Shown here in pieces: positions 29,540 through 57,005 of a stretch of 64,000 nucleotides of DNA. The stretch covers positions 6,054 to 70,053 of the forward strand of contig JAJHSB010000062.1 of the NCBI GenBank assembly GCA_022684035.1, written 5' to 3'. The notes beneath the pieces were generated by a model, which worked only from the letters and a program-made list of their open reading frames with translations, did no database searches and was not told the origin of the DNA. How positions within the stretch are numbered: position 1 is the first letter of the stretch; every line of letters begins with the position of its first letter. Source of the DNA: Candidatus Acetothermia bacterium (lineage in GTDB: Bacteria > Bipolaricaulota > Bipolaricaulia > UBA7950). Made by a program: the position numbers and the translations under genes.

Positions 29540-30136
29540 TCACCGGTAAATATCTTTCTCCTCAATATACGCTGCAACTCCTGCTGGCACTAATCCATCA
29601 ATATTCTCTCTTTTCCGGTAGGTTTCCCTGACGATGGAAGAAGAGAGTTCCATCTCCTCTATGTCGAGAAAATAGATCTCACCGCGAGAGAATGGAAGAC
29701 GCTCAAACTCCTCTTTCTTAATTCCATTTCGCGGTGCGAGGATGAACGGACAGCTGGTAATAAGATCCTCTGGATCTTTCCATGTTTCGATCTTTTTGAA
29801 GAGGTCTGCCCCGACGATGAAGCAGACTCCTTGTGGATAGAGTTCTTTCATGCTGTTGATCGTATCAATAGTATAAGACGGACCTGGCCGATCGATCTCC
29901 ACGCGTGATACTTCAAAGTGCGGATACCCAATGAGCGCGCGGCGGACCATCTCATACCGACAGTGAGCGGTGGCTCTTTCGATAATCTGCTTGTGAGGCG
30001 GATGTCCACTCGGAATGAAGATTACTTTTGCAAGTGCAAATTGCGTCAGAGCTCGCTCGGCGATAACAATATGAGCGTTATGCACCGGGTTGAATGTCCC
30101 TCCAAACAGACCGACTCGGTTGTAGAGCGGTGACAT
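29540..30136 (-). CDS. nadD: nicotinate-nucleotide adenylyltransferase
   Basis: GLFGGTFNPVHNAH...IPSGHPPHK. Start taken at the internal Met 30136; ORF-track start 30178 is the alternative. Confidence 0.85.
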   Translation of the reverse strand: MSPLYNRVGLFGGTFNPVHNAHIVIAERALTQFALAKVIFIPSGHPPHKQIIERATAHCRYEMVRRALIGYPHFEVSRVEIDRPGPSYTIDTINSMKELYPQGVCFIVGADLFKKIETWKDPEDLITSCPFILAPRNGIKKEEFERLPFSRGEIYFLDIEEMELSSSIVRETYRKRENIDGLVPAGVAAYIEEKDIYR

Positions 30137-30143
30137 CTCTCTA

Positions 30144-31421
30144 TCAGGCACCACCATCACAGATCTCCATAGTTTCAAATTCCATCTCTCCGATTACAAG
30201 CCTGTCACCGTCTTTGTATCCGGCTTTGACAAGTTTCTGTATCACTCCCATCTTCTCTAGTTGCTCATATAGGTAGGCGTGTGCATCTCGACTATCGAGA
30301 ACCAACTTGGTCACCAATTTTTCTACCTTCTCTCCTGAGACGACAAATTTCTCTTCGTCTCGTCTTACCGTAACGCTGGCTACATCTCCTTGAGATCGAT
30401 ATATTCGCCGCCTCGTTACCTGGATACTCTCTCGCTCGCGCATCGTAGCGAGGAGGTAATAAGTCTGTTTTACCAAATTCCGCACGTTTGCCCCTGTAAC
30501 GACCGATATCGGCAACAGATCAATTCCCTGTTCTTTAAACCTCATGCAGACTTCATCGACTCTCTTCTCGTCCACCAGGTCGATTTTATTCCCAACGACA
30601 AGCTGCGGCTTATCCGCTAAGCGGCTGTTAAAAGCTGATAGTTCAGCGTTGATTCGCATGTAGTCGTCAAGCGGATCATCCCTCTCTAAAGCAGTGATAT
30701 CCACAATATGAATCAACACTCGTGTCCGTTCAATATGTTTGAGAAACTTATCTCCTAACCCTTTACCGGCGTGCGCTCCTTCGATCAATCCTGGTATGTC
30801 AACGGCAACAAATTGATTGATTCCATCTACATCAACGACACCGAGATTCGGAACCACCGTTGTGAATGGATAAGGGGCTATTTTAGCTTTACGCGCGGAA
30901 ATTGCAGAGATCAAGCTCGATTTACCGACATTAGGAAAGCCGATTATCCCAACGTCAGCCAGGAGCTTTAACTCTAAGTCGATCGATCGTTGCTCGCCGG
31001 GTAAGCCGCGTTCGCAGATCCGCGGTGCCTGCCTAACCGAAGTAACAAAACTGGCATTACCCCGTCCTCCTTCCCCGCCCCTCGCCAGCAGGATCTCTGC
31101 TCCGCTGTGGGAAAGGTCGGCTAATATCTCTCCAGTGACGGAATCACGCACTACTGTTCCGATAGGAACATGGATTATTGTATCATCTCCGCTATATCCC
31201 TGACGTTTATTCTTTCCCCCGGGTTGGCCGTCCTTACCACGAAACCTGCGTTGATCTTTGAACGAAGACAACGTAGTGATATGCGGTGATGCTTGTATCA
31301 CTATATCGCCGCCATTGCCGCCATTACCACCTGCCGGCCCGCCTTTATAACTATAAAAGCAGATGATGCCGTTTCCACCTCGACCGGCTTGGACGTGAAT
31401 CTTCGCCTCATCTATAAACAT
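30144..31421 (-). CDS. obg: GTPase Obg
   Basis: Glycine-rich Obg fold, G1-G4 motifs (GFPNVGKSS) and a C-terminal OCT-like domain. Confidence 0.95.
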   Translation of the reverse strand: MFIDEAKIHVQAGRGGNGIICFYSYKGGPAGGNGGNGGDIVIQASPHITTLSSFKDQRRFRGKDGQPGGKNKRQGYSGDDTIIHVPIGTVVRDSVTGEILADLSHSGAEILLARGGEGGRGNASFVTSVRQAPRICERGLPGEQRSIDLELKLLADVGIIGFPNVGKSSLISAISARKAKIAPYPFTTVVPNLGVVDVDGINQFVAVDIPGLIEGAHAGKGLGDKFLKHIERTRVLIHIVDITALERDDPLDDYMRINAELSAFNSRLADKPQLVVGNKIDLVDEKRVDEVCMRFKEQGIDLLPISVVTGANVRNLVKQTYYLLATMRERESIQVTRRRIYRSQGDVASVTVRRDEEKFVVSGEKVEKLVTKLVLDSRDAHAYLYEQLEKMGVIQKLVKAGYKDGDRLVIGEMEFETMEICDGGA

Positions 31422-31459: not shown

Positions 31460-31714
31460 CTAATCAGTAATCGGGAGGACATCGACATATTTTTGTTCCC
31501 GTCCGACAAACTGCACGTAACCTTTAACCGTAGCAAAGATTGTGTGGTCACGTCCCATACCGACATTCTTTCCGGGCTTGAACTTCGTTCCCCTCTGTCG
31601 AACAATAATCGTTCCCGCATTGACCATTTGACCACCAAAGCGCTTCACACCCAATCGCTGTCCCGGAGAATCTTTGAGGTTACGTGTCGATCCACTACTC
31701 GTCTTATGTGCCAT
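31460..31714 (-). CDS. rpmA: 50S ribosomal protein L27
   Basis: [28 protein letters not shown]. There is no N-terminal propeptide extension. Confidence 0.95.
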
Positions 31715-31770
31715 ATTTCAATCACTTCCTGCTAACCAAATCCAATATAATCGTTCTTTCTCTATCTCGT

Positions 31771-32103
31771 TTACGAAAGACTCACCGCGGCTGTCATATC
31801 TTGCACGACAAATTCGGCCTGGTAATCGCGCTCAAGGAGCTTAAGTCCACAGAGCACAGTCTCTAAAATCGCATCAATCTCCCTGTTTAAAGAAGCAGTA
31901 GCAGCGCTACGGTTGATCAACCAGGAGAATTCGCCGTTCTTTGCGCGAAAGGTTGACTCAACATACAAGTAGCTGGCTAAGCCGGTAACAGCAGCCTGAA
32001 CAAGATAACGAGAGGCTATCCCTGGACTATTATTCTCTATTTGGCGTCCTTGGAACCTACAAATACGATTCTCCTCGTCTCTCTCTACAATAATTTCAGC
32101 CAA
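31771..32103 (-). CDS. Prp (YsxB/DUF464)-like protein, probably catalytically inactive
   Basis: 110 aa, sitting between rplU and rpmA, with Prp-like blocks. The catalytic His (GHAG) is replaced in GRQI, the catalytic Cys (IVCAAVS) is replaced in LVQAAVT, and the protein has no histidine at all. Confidence 0.55.
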   Translation of the reverse strand: MAEIIVERDEENRICRFQGRQIENNSPGIASRYLVQAAVTGLASYLYVESTFRAKNGEFSWLINRSAATASLNREIDAILETVLCGLKLLERDYQAEFVVQDMTAAVSLS

Positions 32104-32131
32104 ATTCTCTCCTCTGGCATCTACTCATATC

Positions 32132-32452
32132 TTATGCCACTACTTCGATCGTCTTTATTAATGTAGACATGTAAGGTTGCCGGTGACCTCGTTTACGCCG
32201 GTATCCCTTCTTTGGTTTATACTTGTAGATGATCACCTTCTCATCCAAACCCGCTTCACTGATTACCCCGGTTATCGTGGCGCCTTTGAGGTAGGGAGTG
32301 CCGATCTGAGGACCATTCTCATCGACTACAAGGAGAACTTTGTCGAATTTGATTGCCTCCCCGACTCTATATCCATCAATTTTCTCATGGACTACCACTG
32401 CGCCTGGTTCAACACGATACTGCTTTCCGCACGTTTCAATTATTGCATACAT
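32132..32452 (-). CDS. rplU: 50S ribosomal protein L21
   Basis: MYAIIETCGKQYRV... Confidence 0.95.
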   Translation of the reverse strand: MYAIIETCGKQYRVEPGAVVVHEKIDGYRVGEAIKFDKVLLVVDENGPQIGTPYLKGATITGVISEAGLDEKVIIYKYKPKKGYRRKRGHRQPYMSTLIKTIEVVA

Positions 32453-38956: not shown

Positions 38957-39200
38957 TCCCCGGACAAGCCGGAAATCCCAATAACCAAATCTCAATTTCC
39001 AAACAATAATCAAATTTCAATAATCAAACTTCTATTGCGATTTGTCGATAATCGAGGAGAAGACTCCGGCCTTTCTGTTTGAGATTTTGGTCATTGGTCA
39101 TTGAGCTTTGTTTGGAAATTGGTGCTTGGAATTTGTGATTTCAACTCCTTGCCATTCCCCGCCTTCGCGAGGACAAGTTTGCGTCAGATTTCAGATTTTG
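38957..39200. repeat. family-1 MITE-like element, about 245 bp, complete, inside the hyd operon
   Basis: Left arm ccggacaagccggaaatcccaataaccaaatctcaatttccaaacaataatcaaa. Right arm tttgagattttggtcattggtcattgagctttgtttggaaattggtgcttggaatttgtgatttcaa. About 90% identical, as reverse complement, to 55611-55865. Confidence 0.85.
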
Positions 39201-41151: not shown

Positions 41152-41385
41152 CTAAATTCTGAAGTTTTGCGCAAAATGGCAAGGAATTGAAATCTCAAAT
41201 CCCAAGCACCAATTTCCAAACAAAGCTCAATGACCAATGACCAAAATCTCAGACAGAAAAGCCAGAGTATTTTTCTCGCTTAGGGACAAATTGCTCATAG
41301 AAGTTTGGTTATTGGGATTTGGTTATTGTTTGGAAATTGAGATTTGGTCATTGGGATTTCCAGCTTGTCCGGTTTAGGGACAGAA
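41152..41385. repeat. family-1 MITE-like element (complete copy)
   Basis: ctaaattctgaagttttgcgcaaaatgg...aatgaccaatgaccaaaatctca [about 50-bp core] tttggttattgggatttggttattgtttggaaattgagatttggtcattgggatttccagcttgtccgg. Confidence 0.85.
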
Positions 41386-53606: not shown

Positions 53607-53896
53607 TTATTTATTAAAAGATAATGATACATTCTATATAAAATCTATCTTCCATGTTTTCTGCTTCTTTTTAATTCTTACTGTGTCGCCACTAAAATGA
53701 AGTATCCACTTGACTTTTGCAAAGAGATATATATAATTAATTTAATGTCTATGTTGTTGTGGGCAACTTGGCGAGACAGTTGTACAACTCTTCTTTGCCT
53801 GCTGCTCGGCAACTGAAAAGAAAATCGACAATAGCAAGAGGTGGTCGGTCGAGTAAGTTGATTATAGATTAATCATAGTTAAAATAGACGTTAAAA

Positions 53897-54340
53897 GCCA
53901 GATAAACCTAACGGAGGTAAATGCGATGACCGGAAAAAAGGACATCAAAAAGCCAGATAAGCCTAATGTCGGCAAGAGCGATGCCCAGAAAAAAGGGCCA
54001 GCAAAAAGATAGATAAACCTAATGGAGGTAAATGCGATGACCGGAAAAAAGGACATCAAAAAGCCAGATAAGCCTAACGGCGGCAAGAGCGATGCCCAGA
54101 AAAAAGGGCCACAAAAAGCTAGATAAGTATAGCTAACGTAGGAGCGATGCCCAGAAAAAAGGGCAAAAACAAAAGAACAGATAACAATAGCGGAGGTAAG
54201 AGCGATGGCCGAAAAAAAGGGCAGCAAAAAGCCAGATAAGTCTAGCCAACGTAAGAGCGATGCCCAGAAAAAAGGGCAAAAACAAAAGAACAGATAACAA
54301 TAGCGGAGGTAAGAGCGATGGCCGAAAAAAAGGGCAAAAA
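53897..54340. repeat. tandem array (about 8 units of 50-60 bp) duplicating the RBS, start codon and first codons of the downstream beta-CA gene
   Basis: Units follow the form gccagataaRcctaaYgg(a/c)gg(t/c)aa(a/g)Ngcgatg(a/c/g)ccNgaaaaaaggNc...aaaaa. Each unit carries GGAGGTAA-N-GCGATG and short Lys-rich ORFs (for example MTGKKDIKKPDKPNVGKSDAQKKGPAKR*). The last unit is the real gene start at 54318. Confidence 0.85.
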
Positions 54341-55373
54341 CAACAAAAAGCCTGATAAGACTATCGGTATACTTCTGGTTGTAGTCGTTGGTTTAGCGCT
54401 ATATTCTGCTCTATTTATGTCATTTACTCTGCCGGGAATTGGCGGTCGATTAGCAGAGCTCCGCGATGATGTAGGAGCGATTGTCGCCAATGTCGCTGGC
54501 TTAGTAGCACCGATAAGAGCAGAAGTAACAGGTGTACGCGCAGAAGTAACTGGTGTACGCGCAGAAATGGCAGCTGTGGGAGATGCTGTAGCAGTAACCC
54601 GCACTCAAATAATAGCCCAAATAGAAGCTTTGGAAGAAGCGCTAACCCCAGAATACTATCTCCGTCCCGCTGATCTAACGCAAAATCCGGAGGCAGCATG
54701 GCAGGAACTGACGGTAGGTAACGCACGGTTCATTGCCGGTGCAACAGTAGTACGGGATTGGGCCGCATTGCGAAAAAAGCATGCAGTTGGACAATGGCCG
54801 TTTGTTTCCATTGTCTCTTGCTCCGACTCCAGATTCTCTCCGGAAGTAATCTTCGATCAGGGGATCGGCGATGTATTTAGCGTCCGTACCGCGGGCAATA
54901 TAGTTGATGAGATAGCATTAGGCTCGCTCGAATTTTCAGTCAATGTGCTTGGAGCTCCATTGATAGTTGTGCTCGGGCACGAGGGTTGTGGTGCGGTATT
55001 TTCTACTGTCGATGCTCTGAAAGAAGTACTTAAGCTTCCGCCTGGGTTTGAGCCCGACAAGTTGATGTATGTTGTCGGTGAGATCATCCCTGCAGCGGAA
55101 GAAGCAATCGCAACAGGAAAAACCGGGATTGAACTCAGAGAATATGCGACGACAGTGAACGTCCGTATAGTCGCAGCAGAAATCATCATCGACGCATTTG
55201 GGATTGCCGACGCTATCCGAAGGGGAGATGTTATCGTCATTGGCGCTAAGGTCATGTTCGATGGCACCGTCACCGAACTATTTCGGGTAGATGAAGCTAA
55301 TATCGACGAGTTTATCGCCGCAATGGTTTATCTCAGAGATATTGCCGGACAACCATGTGAATGTTGCAGCTAA
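54318..55373 (+). CDS. membrane-anchored beta-class carbonic anhydrase with Lys-rich N-terminus, a TM helix and RAEVTGV heptad repeats
   Basis: Beta-CA motifs CSDSR and HEGCGAV in the C-terminal 200 aa. The N-terminus is MAEKKGKNNKKPDK followed by a hydrophobic helix and RAEVTGVRAEVTGVRAEMAAV. Confidence 0.8.
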   Translation: MAEKKGKNNKKPDKTIGILLVVVVGLALYSALFMSFTLPGIGGRLAELRDDVGAIVANVAGLVAPIRAEVTGVRAEVTGVRAEMAAVGDAVAVTRTQIIAQIEALEEALTPEYYLRPADLTQNPEAAWQELTVGNARFIAGATVVRDWAALRKKHAVGQWPFVSIVSCSDSRFSPEVIFDQGIGDVFSVRTAGNIVDEIALGSLEFSVNVLGAPLIVVLGHEGCGAVFSTVDALKEVLKLPPGFEPDKLMYVVGEIIPAAEEAIATGKTGIELREYATTVNVRIVAAEIIIDAFGIADAIRRGDVIVIGAKVMFDGTVTELFRVDEANIDEFIAAMVYLRDIAGQPCECCS

Positions 55374-55610: not shown

Positions 55611-55920
55611 TCTAAAATCTAAAGTCTTGCGCAAACTTGTCCTCGCGAAGGCGGGGAATGGAAAGAAGTTAAACTCACAAATTCCAAGCACCAATTTCCA
55701 AACAAATCTCAATGACCAATGACCAAAATCTCAAACAGAAAGGCCGGAGTCTTTTCCTCGATTGTCGACAAATCGCTCATAGAAGTTTGGTTATTAGGAT
55801 TTGGTTATTGTTTGGAAATTGAGATTTGGTCATTGGGATTTCCGGCTTGTCCGGGTTAGGGGCAAAACAAACTCTGTAGGATTAAGCAACGGGATTGCTT
55901 CGCAGACTCACAATGACAAA
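55611..55920. repeat. family-1 MITE-like element (complete) plus 'gcaatgac' tail, 5' of the tRNA cluster
   Basis: ggtctaaaatctaaagtcttgcgcaaa ... aatgaccaatgaccaaaatctcaaacag [core] tttggttattaggatttggttattgtttggaaattgagatttggtcattgggatttccggcttgtccgggttagg, then gggattgcttcgcagactcacaatgac. Confidence 0.85.
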
Positions 55921-55988: not shown

Positions 55989-56060
55989 GCGGGAGTAGCT
56001 CAGTGGTAGAGCACTGCCTTGCCAAGGCAGACGTCGCGGGTTCGAATCCCGTTTCCCGCT
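55989..56060 (+). tRNA. tRNA-Gly (GCC)
   Basis: GCGGGAGTAGCTCAGTGGTAGAGCACTGCCTTGCCAAGGCAG...TTCGAATCCCGTTTCCCGCT, with anticodon loop ttGCCaa. Confidence 0.85.
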
Positions 56061-56099
56061 TAGCCTCGTTAATCGATATTACGTTAGCGTACTACGATC

Positions 56100-56185
56100 G
56101 CCGGGGTGGCGGAATTGGCAGACGCAAGGGACTTAAAATCCTTTGAGGGTATCCCCTCGTGCGGGTTCAAGTCCCGCTCCCGGCA
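56100..56185 (+). tRNA. tRNA-Leu (TAA)
   Basis: 86 nt with a long variable arm; anticodon loop ctTAAaa. Confidence 0.8.
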
Positions 56186-56204
56186 AAGAGAAAGATAAAG
56201 ATAT

Positions 56205-56278
56205 CGCGGGGTGGAGCAACCTGGAAGCTCGTCGGGCTCATAACCCGGAGGTTGTCGGTTCGAATCCGACCCCCGCAA
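56205..56278 (+). tRNA. tRNA-fMet initiator (CAT), copy 1
   Basis: C1:A72 mismatch and three G-C pairs in the anticodon stem (gggCTCATAAccc). Confidence 0.8.
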
Positions 56279-56302
56279 CTAGTTGCAATATTTAGTATTT
56301 AC

Positions 56303-56376
56303 CGCGGGGTGGAGCAACCTGGAAGCTCGTCGGGCTCATAACCCGGAGGTTGTCGGTTCGAATCCGACTCCCGCAA
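56303..56376 (+). tRNA. tRNA-fMet initiator (CAT), copy 2
   Basis: Near-identical to copy 1, differing by 1 nt in the acceptor 3' strand. Confidence 0.8.
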
Positions 56377-56388
56377 CTATGTCAAGTC

Positions 56389-56463
56389 GGCGACGTAGCT
56401 CAACCGGCTTAGAGCGCTCGGCTCATATCCGAGAGGTTCAGGGTTCAAGTCCCTGCGTCGCCA
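56389..56463 (+). tRNA. tRNA with CAT anticodon (elongator Met or lysidine-modified Ile2)
   Basis: GGCGACGTAGCTCAACCGGCTAGAGCGCTCGGCTCATATCCGAG...TTCAAGTCCCTGCGTCGCCA. I cannot tell Met from Ile2 by eye. Confidence 0.7.
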
Positions 56464-56467
56464 TATC

Positions 56468-56541
56468 GGGGGTGTAGCTCTAACTGGGAGAGCGCTGCGT
56501 TCGCATCGCAGAGGATGGCGGTTCGAATCCGCTCACCTCCA
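56468..56541 (+). tRNA. tRNA-Ala (CGC)
   Basis: G3:U70 in the acceptor stem; anticodon loop ttCGCat. Confidence 0.75.
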
Positions 56542-56605: not shown

Positions 56606-57005
56606 TGCTAAAATCTGAAGTCTTGCGCAAAATGGAAAGGAATTGAAATCACAAATTCCAAGCACCAATAACTAACTACCAGAAAGAGTGACTCGTGACT
56701 CGTGACTGGTAACTGGAGGGGAAGATCCCACGAGCCACGAGTCACGAACCACGAGTCACGAACCACGAGCCACGAGCCGAAGGCAGGGATTGGTTATTGG
56801 GATTTGGTTATTGTTTGGAAATTGAGATTTGGTCATTGGGATTTCCGGCTTGTCCGGGTTAGGGGCAAAACAAACTCTGTAGGATTATAAGGAATGAGAT
56901 TGCTTCGCTGACTCGCAATGACAAAGGAAGGTAATTTGCAATGACCTGCGAAGAGACTCGCAATGACCTGTCTGCGTGCGGGAGACGTACAGGCAGGCGG
57001 AATAG
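56606..57005. repeat. family-1 MITE-like element with internal heptamer arrays plus 'gcaatgac' tail, 3' of the tRNA cluster
   Basis: The core contains gactcgtgactcgtgactggtaactgg and the inverse array cacgagccacgagtcacgaaccacgagtcacgaaccacgagccacgagcc. Arms as in the other family-1 copies. The tail gagattgcttcgctgactcgcaatgacaaaggaaggtaatttgcaatgacc is about 95% identical, as reverse complement, to 46541-46592. Confidence 0.85.

Follow-up and report, generated by a model that had tools for sequence, protein, structure and literature searches.

The rplU-prp-rpmA locus

The window analysed here is a 64-kb stretch of DNA from Candidatus Acetothermia bacterium (phylum Candidatus Bipolaricaulota), and all coordinates given below are positions within it. 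The gene in question lies between rplU and rpmA, which encode the ribosomal proteins bL21 and bL27 (hereafter L21 and L27), and its product is related to Prp, a protein currently treated as a protease whose sole established job is the removal of the L27 propeptide. The features of the locus, listed in the direction of transcription, are as follows:

32132-32452, minus strand: rplU (bL21), 106 aa, first gene of the rplU-prp-rpmA cluster (PF00829, E 1e-32; TIGR00061, E 7.6e-31)
32109-32114, minus strand: Shine-Dalgarno-like GAGGAG, in the 28-nt rplU-prp spacer and 5 nt before the TTG start of the Prp-like gene
31771-32103, minus strand: Prp-like open reading frame (ORF), 110 aa, TTG start, between rplU and rpmA
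31725-31730, minus strand: Shine-Dalgarno-like AGGAAG upstream of rpmA, in the 56-nt prp-rpmA spacer
31718-31720, minus strand: TGA stop in the frame of rpmA, two codons ahead of its ATG
31460-31714, minus strand: rpmA (bL27), 84 aa, starting MAHK (PF01016, E 6.1e-36; TIGR00062, E 6.5e-34)
30144-31421, minus strand: obg (50S-assembly GTPase), 425 aa, the downstream neighbour in rplU-prp-rpmA-obg

The TTG start of the Prp-like ORF agrees with the JGI and NCBI gene calls (P0001, P0262), and the encoded protein is identical to MCI2425479.1, which NCBI names 'hypothetical protein'. Two sigma-70-like sites were detected upstream of rplU (32554-32526 and 32505-32477), with no enrichment of such sites over shuffled sequences. 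The Obg of the window is 82% identical to that of Ca. Acetothermia UBA7950 and 47-55% identical to those of other members of the phylum, and the order rplU-prp-rpmA-obg was also found at loci L161 and L164-L167 (Pfam GTP1_OBG).

The first-pass annotation of this DNA had stated that the adjacent L27 carries no cleavable N-terminal extension, and the gene structure bears this out: in the ORF list, 31714 is the first possible start of rpmA, and as an in-frame TGA lies two codons before this ATG, no N-terminal propeptide can be encoded. The cognate substrate of Prp is defined by an L27 extension ending in (D/N)LQ(F/L)F↓A(S/H)K (the arrow marks cleavage), which the window L27 does not have, and no L27-like cleavage motif ([DN][LIVM]Q[LFW][FL][AS]) was found in the six frames or in any ORF of the window. 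As a separate observation, the L27 proteins of Bipolaricaulota (window and L001-L160) carry AHK[TS]S in the N-terminus that reaches the peptidyl-transferase centre, in place of the nearly universal AHKK, and the window L27 has NLKDS where others have NGRDS.

The gene in the slot encodes a Prp homologue

Taken alone, the window protein scores below the curated cut-offs for Prp, with 12.7 bits (E 0.16) against PF04327, whose gathering threshold is 27, and 14.7 bits (E 0.028) against NF011133, whose cut-off is 171. A phmmer search of the PDB sequences with this single protein returned no match, and a profile of the 21-member alignment A2 reached at best E 0.17, to 4PEO. Because of these results, homology was assessed through intermediate sequences and by profile-profile comparison. 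In BLASTP the window protein matched the canonical Bipolaricaulota Prp P0103 over its full length (E 2e-18, 37% identity), and P0103 matches the Staphylococcus aureus Prp 4PEO at E 3e-8. When a profile of 65 window-type sequences lacking the catalytic residues (termed 'dead' hereafter) was aligned by hhalign with that of 46 canonical Prps, all from other lineages and for the most part from Firmicutes, the probability was 99.2% (E 1.3e-19, 107 columns). A hidden Markov model (HMM) of these canonical Prps picked exactly the window ORF among the 497 ORF pieces of the window (E 1.4e-10), and no second, active Prp copy was found by this search within the 64 kb.

The family to which the protein belongs was delimited by a profile search of 1.84 billion representatives, which gave 21 relatives, and by a word-indexed profile search, which gave 209 clusters at 90% identity, nearly all of 106-110 aa, the named ones being from Bipolaricaulota/Acetothermia. 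The family grades continuously into bona fide Prps, as 14 of the 21 members of A2 match PF04327, the best of them at 4.7e-23. The structural prediction pointed in the same direction: an AlphaFold2 (AF2) model built from a 75-sequence alignment reached a predicted local distance difference test (pLDDT) score of 93 and a predicted template modelling (pTM) score of 0.85, and the top 14 Foldseek matches of this model were all Prp structures. Thus, the window protein is a true Prp homologue by descent (MEROPS C108/PF04327), as the first-pass annotation had claimed from the position of the gene and a block-wise alignment.

The sub-threshold PF04327 and NF011133 scores and the empty phmmer search could also be read as the sign of a spurious resemblance, with an unrelated small ORF sitting in the slot. 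This reading was ruled out by the hhalign comparison, the BLASTP match to a bona fide Prp and the continuous series of intermediates from active to dead forms, and we give it a negligible probability.

The active site is lost

The region of the protein that corresponds to the catalytic loop is the following:

32026-32049, minus strand: remnant of catalytic loop L2 and start of helix 1, residues 19-26, GRQIENNS (canonical counterpart G-H-A-G-x5-6-G-x-D-I-V-C)

Seven columns are invariant in the canonical Prp alignment (G, H, D, I, V, C and A), and all seven are lost in the window protein. The His22 column (S. aureus numbering) is occupied by Ile22 in both the MAFFT and the hhalign alignments; at the Cys34 column, either the segment R-D-I-V-C is deleted (hhalign) or the Cys falls on Gly28 (MAFFT). 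Gly21 is replaced by Gln21 and Ser38 by Arg32, while Asp31 is deleted or aligned to an Asn. In S. aureus Prp, mutation of Gly21, His22, Asp31, Cys34 or Ser38 abolishes activity (PMC9261936, PMC9405229).

The first-pass annotation had described both catalytic residues as replaced and the protein as devoid of His, and alignment and composition agree with this. The protein contains two Cys (C15 and C85), both conserved only among its closest relatives, and no His, so that an alternative Cys-His pair is not possible. One detail needed correction, as the segment LVQAAVT had been equated with the canonical IVCAAVS, a register off by about eight residues; LVQAAVT (residues 34-40) aligns with the downstream canonical LxQTAVxGL, and its Q36 is the conserved Gln. 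This correction leaves the conclusion on the missing catalytic His and Cys unaffected.

The clamp loop, which runs from Gly21 to Asp31 in S. aureus, is 5-8 residues shorter in the window protein, and in the AF2 model only five residues separate strand 2 (14-20) from helix 1 (26-46). Judged from its sequence, the window protein is a pseudo-protease, that is, a Prp without catalytic residues that is maintained by purifying selection.

Prp and L27 change together across loci

The arrangement rplU-x-rpmA was surveyed at 80 genome loci retrieved via Obg and 80 metagenome loci retrieved via the family motif, plus the window. The counts below refer to the 121 non-redundant loci with an L27 match, in which Prp was called with the canonical and dead HMMs:

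76 loci: Prp without His and Cys, L27 starting MAHK (no propeptide)
10 loci (4 Bipolaricaulota, 6 Firmicutes): Prp with intact G-H...D-I-V-C, L27 with propeptide
34 loci: no Prp, L27 without propeptide
1 locus (L076): no Prp, L27 start unclassifiable

Discordant combinations of Prp and L27 were found at 0 of the 121 loci. Loss of the Prp active site thus goes with loss of the L27 propeptide (76 vs. 10 loci), the correlation that the first-pass annotation had suggested looking for in related genomes. At the four active loci of Bipolaricaulota, the L27 N-terminus reads M..RFDLQLF↓AHK. Three lineages added after the survey comprised two with a dead Prp and no propeptide and one transitional lineage, in which a Cys-less Prp accompanies a degenerate propeptide.

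The dead Prp gene occupied the slot between rplU and rpmA at all the loci examined (the 76 surveyed ones as well as L161 and L162) and in many cases overlapped its neighbours by 4 nt, and no relocated copy was seen among these loci. The slot can also be emptied completely, since at L010 (CAVXZA010000002.1) and L047 (CAZMFS010000139.1) the gap between rplU and rpmA is 15-16 nt, with neither a Prp gene nor an L27 propeptide; L047 is placed next to Bipolaricaulota in one neighbour-joining (NJ) tree, in an unstable position.

The active Prps of Bipolaricaulota form a minority clade (for example P0103, L005, L006, L137 and L145; 'ribosomal-processing cysteine protease Prp' in NCBI) encoded in the same operon as in the window. 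They share with the window protein Y-L, R65, L-N-R-E-I-D-A-I-L-E-T and the C-terminal V-x-V but, unlike it, keep G-H...D-I-V-C-A-G-V-S, next to an L27 with the propeptide given above.

Dead Prps are under selection and their conservation has shifted

The ratio of non-synonymous to synonymous substitution rates (dN/dS), estimated by the Nei-Gojobori method, was 0.055-0.35 in 12 pairs of dead orthologues, compared to 0.106 in an active pair; one further active pair was saturated. The dead ORFs were intact and of constant length (106-110 aa) in more than 200 clusters. In the alignment of 65 dead sequences, seven columns are invariant (D9, Y45, L46, R65, R74, E75 and A78) and twelve more are conserved at 90% or above, and the sequences behind these columns are only 28-42% identical to the window protein. 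These values indicate that the dead copies are under purifying selection across the phylum, and we are almost certain that dead Prp has been retained under selection.

The gene could instead be a decaying relic without protein function, kept as a spacer for the translational coupling of rplU and rpmA or for mRNA structure. Such a relic would account for the plainly decayed catalytic site, for the dN/dS of 0.35 in the pair formed by the window and L001, the highest of the set, and for the slots found empty in L010 and L047. A dN/dS well below 1 in 12 of 12 informative dead pairs, similar to that of the active pair, is not what it predicts, nor are intact ORFs in so many clusters at 90% identity, seven invariant columns at such low overall identity and a well-packed AF2 fold. 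We consider it very unlikely.

Among the conserved positions, one stretch stands out:

31870-31890, minus strand: lineage-specific helix-2 N-terminal motif L72-N-R-E-I-D-A78

In the 65 dead sequences R74, E75 and A78 are conserved at 100% and D77 at 98%, and all four are at 100% in 17 active Bipolaricaulota sequences. Y45-L46, R65 and N-R-E-I-D-A are common to active and dead Bipolaricaulota Prps, whereas they are variable in the canonical set; being present in both forms, they must predate the catalytic loss. The shift was quantified as the mean frequency of the top residue at two poles of the protein (window numbering), the active-site pole comprising residues 19-33 and 55-59 and the opposite pole residues 7-14, 43-48, 63-66 and 71-78:

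Active-site pole: dead 0.39, active Bipolaricaulota 0.81, canonical Prp 0.75
Opposite pole: dead 0.79, active Bipolaricaulota 0.91, canonical Prp 0.41

Conservation has therefore moved from the active-site pole to the lineage-specific motif formed by Y45-L46, R65 and N-R-E-I-D-A. Together with R8-D9, these residues make a candidate non-catalytic interaction surface. Their location at the pole opposite the active site is suggested by the topology of the fold and by the published Gly21-Gly65 contact of Prp, which assigns the beta3-beta4 turn, like the end of strand 2, to the active site.

The invariant polar residues that the family has of its own (D9, R65, R74, E75, D77) might also be taken as a relocated or different catalytic set, for example an acidic one of D9, E75 and D77, with which the protein would still be an enzyme or peptidase; migration of catalytic residues is a known phenomenon among pseudoenzymes generally (PMC10211241). 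The dead clade has neither an invariant Cys, Ser or Thr nucleophile nor an invariant His, however, and the L27 propeptide, which would be the cognate substrate, is missing. Moreover, the same residues already occur in active Bipolaricaulota Prps, which have the Cys-His dyad, so they are not replacements for it. A relocated activity seems to us highly improbable.

Prp has been inactivated repeatedly

Recent and intermediate stages of the loss were found in addition to the fully dead forms. In a search with P0103, 117 of the 120 Prps listed had both His and Cys, the exceptions being P0151, P0152 and P0153, the last a partial sequence in which the Cys is kept. P0151 and P0152 are freshly dead, with the GH deleted, the Cys changed and the rest of the loop present:

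L162:276-608: P0151, Cys to Ser
L161:1973-2302: P0152, Cys to Tyr

Both are 68-71% identical to the active P0103 and the L27 adjoining them starts MAHK, so that they look like snapshots of the first steps of decay. The transitional lineage is represented by GCA_036507575.1 and several ENA/Logan assemblies, with seven near-identical proteins on at least 14 contigs (L163-L167 here; contig DATCIV010000072.1 of GCA_036507575.1 and ENA assemblies):

L164:1783-2121: transitional Prp, with His kept, Asp changed to Thr and Cys to Gly (GH..ATIVGAGAS)
L164:2108-2380: rpmA, with an ORF that opens on MLKFERMFAYAHK, which is a degenerate propeptide of unchanged length preceded by a strong GGAGGAGG

Trees were built by NJ from Kimura distances with bootstraps. 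In the tree from L21, L27 and Obg (609 columns), Bipolaricaulota formed a clade with bootstrap 96. One of its two branches was dead throughout and included the window (100), and the other comprised the active sequences and two dead groups (96). L161, which represents the P0152 lineage, was sister to the active clade with bootstrap 100, also after taxa were added. In the Prp protein tree, P0151 nested among seven active sequences with bootstrap 100, to the exclusion of P0152.

The active Bipolaricaulota Prps are the ancestral state from which the window protein derives. The active state is ancestral because the dyad, the loop and a Firmicutes-like propeptide would hardly have been regained, and because active and dead forms share lineage-specific motifs. 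From the trees and the sequences together, Prp was inactivated at least three times, with at least one ancient and two recent events. The possibility that the active clade had regained an active rplU-prp-rpmA by horizontal transfer was considered and rejected, as the shared lineage-specific motifs are absent from Firmicutes; the phylum-typical AHK[ST]S start of the active-clade L27 also speaks against it.

Other features of the window

Downstream of obg lies one further gene of the neighbourhood:

29540-30178, minus strand: nadD, 212 aa

The longest nadD ORF has its TTG at 30178 and shares 35 nt with the 3' end of obg (30144-30178), and the real start of nadD may be further downstream.

A tandem repeat at 53893-54337, with a period of 55/113 nt and about eight copies, has stops in all frames, and each unit carries a GGAGGT, an ATG and a mini-ORF rich in Lys, about 28 aa long (MTGKKDIKKPDKPNGGKSDAQKKGP...). 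The repeat lies directly upstream of the ORF at 54318-55373 (plus strand) and runs slightly into it. A short repeat with a period of 14 nt (TTTGGTTATTGGGA) is scattered over intergenic positions, at 41304-41359, 55786-55841 and 56786-56844 and as its complement at 38979-39029 and 41196-41245, two of these copies flanking a cluster of six tRNA genes (55989-56541, plus strand). The cluster comprises Gly(GCC), Leu(TAA), three consecutive genes with a CAT anticodon and Ala(CGC); the CAT trio presumably stands for initiator Met, elongator Met and Ile2, without distinction of which is which.

A proposed second function for Prp

These data point to the following as the likely history. The L27 of the lineage would have lost its cleavable N-terminal propeptide first, upon which the proteolytic pole of Prp would have been freed from selection and would have decayed, the vertically inherited protein losing the Cys-His dyad, the supporting Gly, Asp and Ser and most of the substrate-clamping loop. 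This is the order of events that we infer. The rest of the protein would have been kept by purifying selection for a second, proteolysis-independent function, most likely located on the opposite pole (R8-D9 in the beta1-beta2 turn, Y45-L46 where helix 1 ends, R65 and the helix-2 N-R-E-I-D-A). This function would most likely be in large-subunit biogenesis, as escort or delivery of L27 and/or L21, encoded in the same operon immediately before obg.

The first-pass annotation had read the gene as a Prp scaffold kept for a non-proteolytic role, such as chaperoning of ribosome assembly, after loss of the substrate propeptide. Of this, the descent from Prp, the catalytic loss, its linkage to propeptide loss and the phylum-wide purifying selection on the scaffold stand; the role in ribosome assembly is suggested by the operon position, the selection, the conserved surface and published hints on S. 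aureus Prp. For the latter a chaperone or assembly role has been proposed, as growth suffers when L27 is made in pre-cleaved form and Prp-L27 occurs on pre-50S particles (PMC9405229), and binding of Prp to L21 has been suggested (PMC12324487). The account as a whole, a pseudo-protease with a second function linked to ribosome assembly, appears to us about evenly poised between right and wrong, and the specific mechanism of an assembly factor is put forward more tentatively, at somewhat below an even chance.

Several points weigh against this account. In Streptococcus pneumoniae, Prp fails to bind an L27 whose cleavage motif is mutated (F12A), nor does wild-type Prp remain attached to L27 that has been cleaved; the authors of this work argue against an action of Prp on the ribosome (PMC12324487). 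As the window protein has lost most of the clamp loop that binds the propeptide, it cannot bind L27 in the known way. The dN/dS of the window/L001 pair allows some relaxation of selection, and the placement of the conserved patch at the opposite pole derives from topology rather than coordinates. The clean order in which the propeptide was lost first may be wrong, given the Cys-less Prp and degenerate propeptide of GCA_036507575.1. Finally, the deep nodes within Bipolaricaulota drop to bootstraps of 7-50 when taxa are added, so that the ancient losses are counted as at least one.

The same evidence could also be accommodated by a function outside the ribosome, in which the small, acidic, dimeric scaffold binds some other partner and the slot is merely historical, in a tightly packed operon that is costly to break. 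Purifying selection and a conserved surface show importance, not purpose; non-ribosomal Prp substrates have been put forward elsewhere, FlhB being proposed (PMC9405229) and Streptococcus mutans glucosyltransferases cited (PMC12324487), and wild-type Prp is not lastingly bound to L27 in vitro (PMC12324487). The persistence of the slot at every dead-Prp locus, often with overlapping neighbours, argues against such a function, as do the absence of relocated dead copies among these loci and that of L27-like cleavage motifs in the ORFs of the window. We hold a non-ribosomal function to be unlikely, if the most serious of the alternatives.

Returning to the ribosome-linked reading, its broader form would be that Prp ancestrally had a second, proteolysis-independent function in large-subunit biogenesis, exerted on a surface remote from the active site, which is conceivable but in our opinion unlikely. 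If this were true, the dead Prps of Bipolaricaulota would be natural separation-of-function alleles that arise repeatedly as the L27 propeptide is lost, Prp and the L27 propeptide of Firmicutes would together form an assembly checkpoint superimposed on an escort protein, and the non-catalytic function would also exist in pathogens in which Prp is a drug target. Since one lineage offers orthologues at every stage (active, transitional, freshly dead and dead), it provides material for studying the suggested chaperone or assembly function without protease activity.

Comparison with known systems

Lists of 'non-peptidase homologues' in the style of MEROPS may include sequences of this kind without comment. 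In the searchable literature, which is incomplete, no published account was found of a naturally inactive Prp or of a Prp in Bipolaricaulota/Acetothermia. Automatic annotation is uneven, as the NCBI Prokaryotic Genome Annotation Pipeline (PGAP) calls one Cys-less member, that of the transitional lineage, 'ribosomal-processing cysteine protease Prp' and most dead members 'hypothetical protein'.

The closest known system is the Prp of S. aureus and other Firmicutes (MEROPS C108, PF04327/DUF464, Bacillus subtilis YsxB; PDB 4PEO, 7KLD, 2IDL and 2G0I). The window protein has in common with it the length (about 106-113 aa), the position between rplU and rpmA and the core motifs xxQxAVxGL in helix 1 and A-I-L-x-T-M-x-x-G-L and Y-P in helix 2. 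It differs in having no equivalents of Cys34, His22, Gly21, Asp31 and Ser38, in a clamp loop L2 shorter by 5-8 residues, in the accompanying L27 without propeptide and in a conservation that is concentrated, within its family, on another pole.

Engineered inactive Prps (C34A/C34S, of S. aureus and S. pneumoniae) resemble the window protein in being folded and without nucleophile, and they still bind L27 and associate with pre-50S particles (PMC9405229; PMC12324487). These mutants are dominant-negative because they trap uncleaved L27, whereas the window L27 has nothing to cleave; unlike them, the natural dead Prp has no propeptide-binding loop.

Prps without a long L27 are known from spirochaetes and from some Thermotogae and Tenericutes, in which the dyad is kept and FlhB has been proposed as the substrate (PMC9405229). 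Thermotoga maritima TM1457 (PDB 1S12) is like the window protein in that the Prp fold is kept though the L27 lacks a cleavable extension (PMC9405229), and it has the same short L2 loop, of five residues; unlike the window protein, it keeps the catalytic His and Cys in an active-like geometry. As the window protein has neither of these, an explanation by a substitute substrate does not apply to it. The pattern in Bipolaricaulota is thus the opposite of that in Thermotoga and spirochaetes, in that dyad and propeptide have vanished together, at least three times, with the protein kept under selection, and as a comparative finding it is evidence that the Prp scaffold has a role independent of proteolysis.

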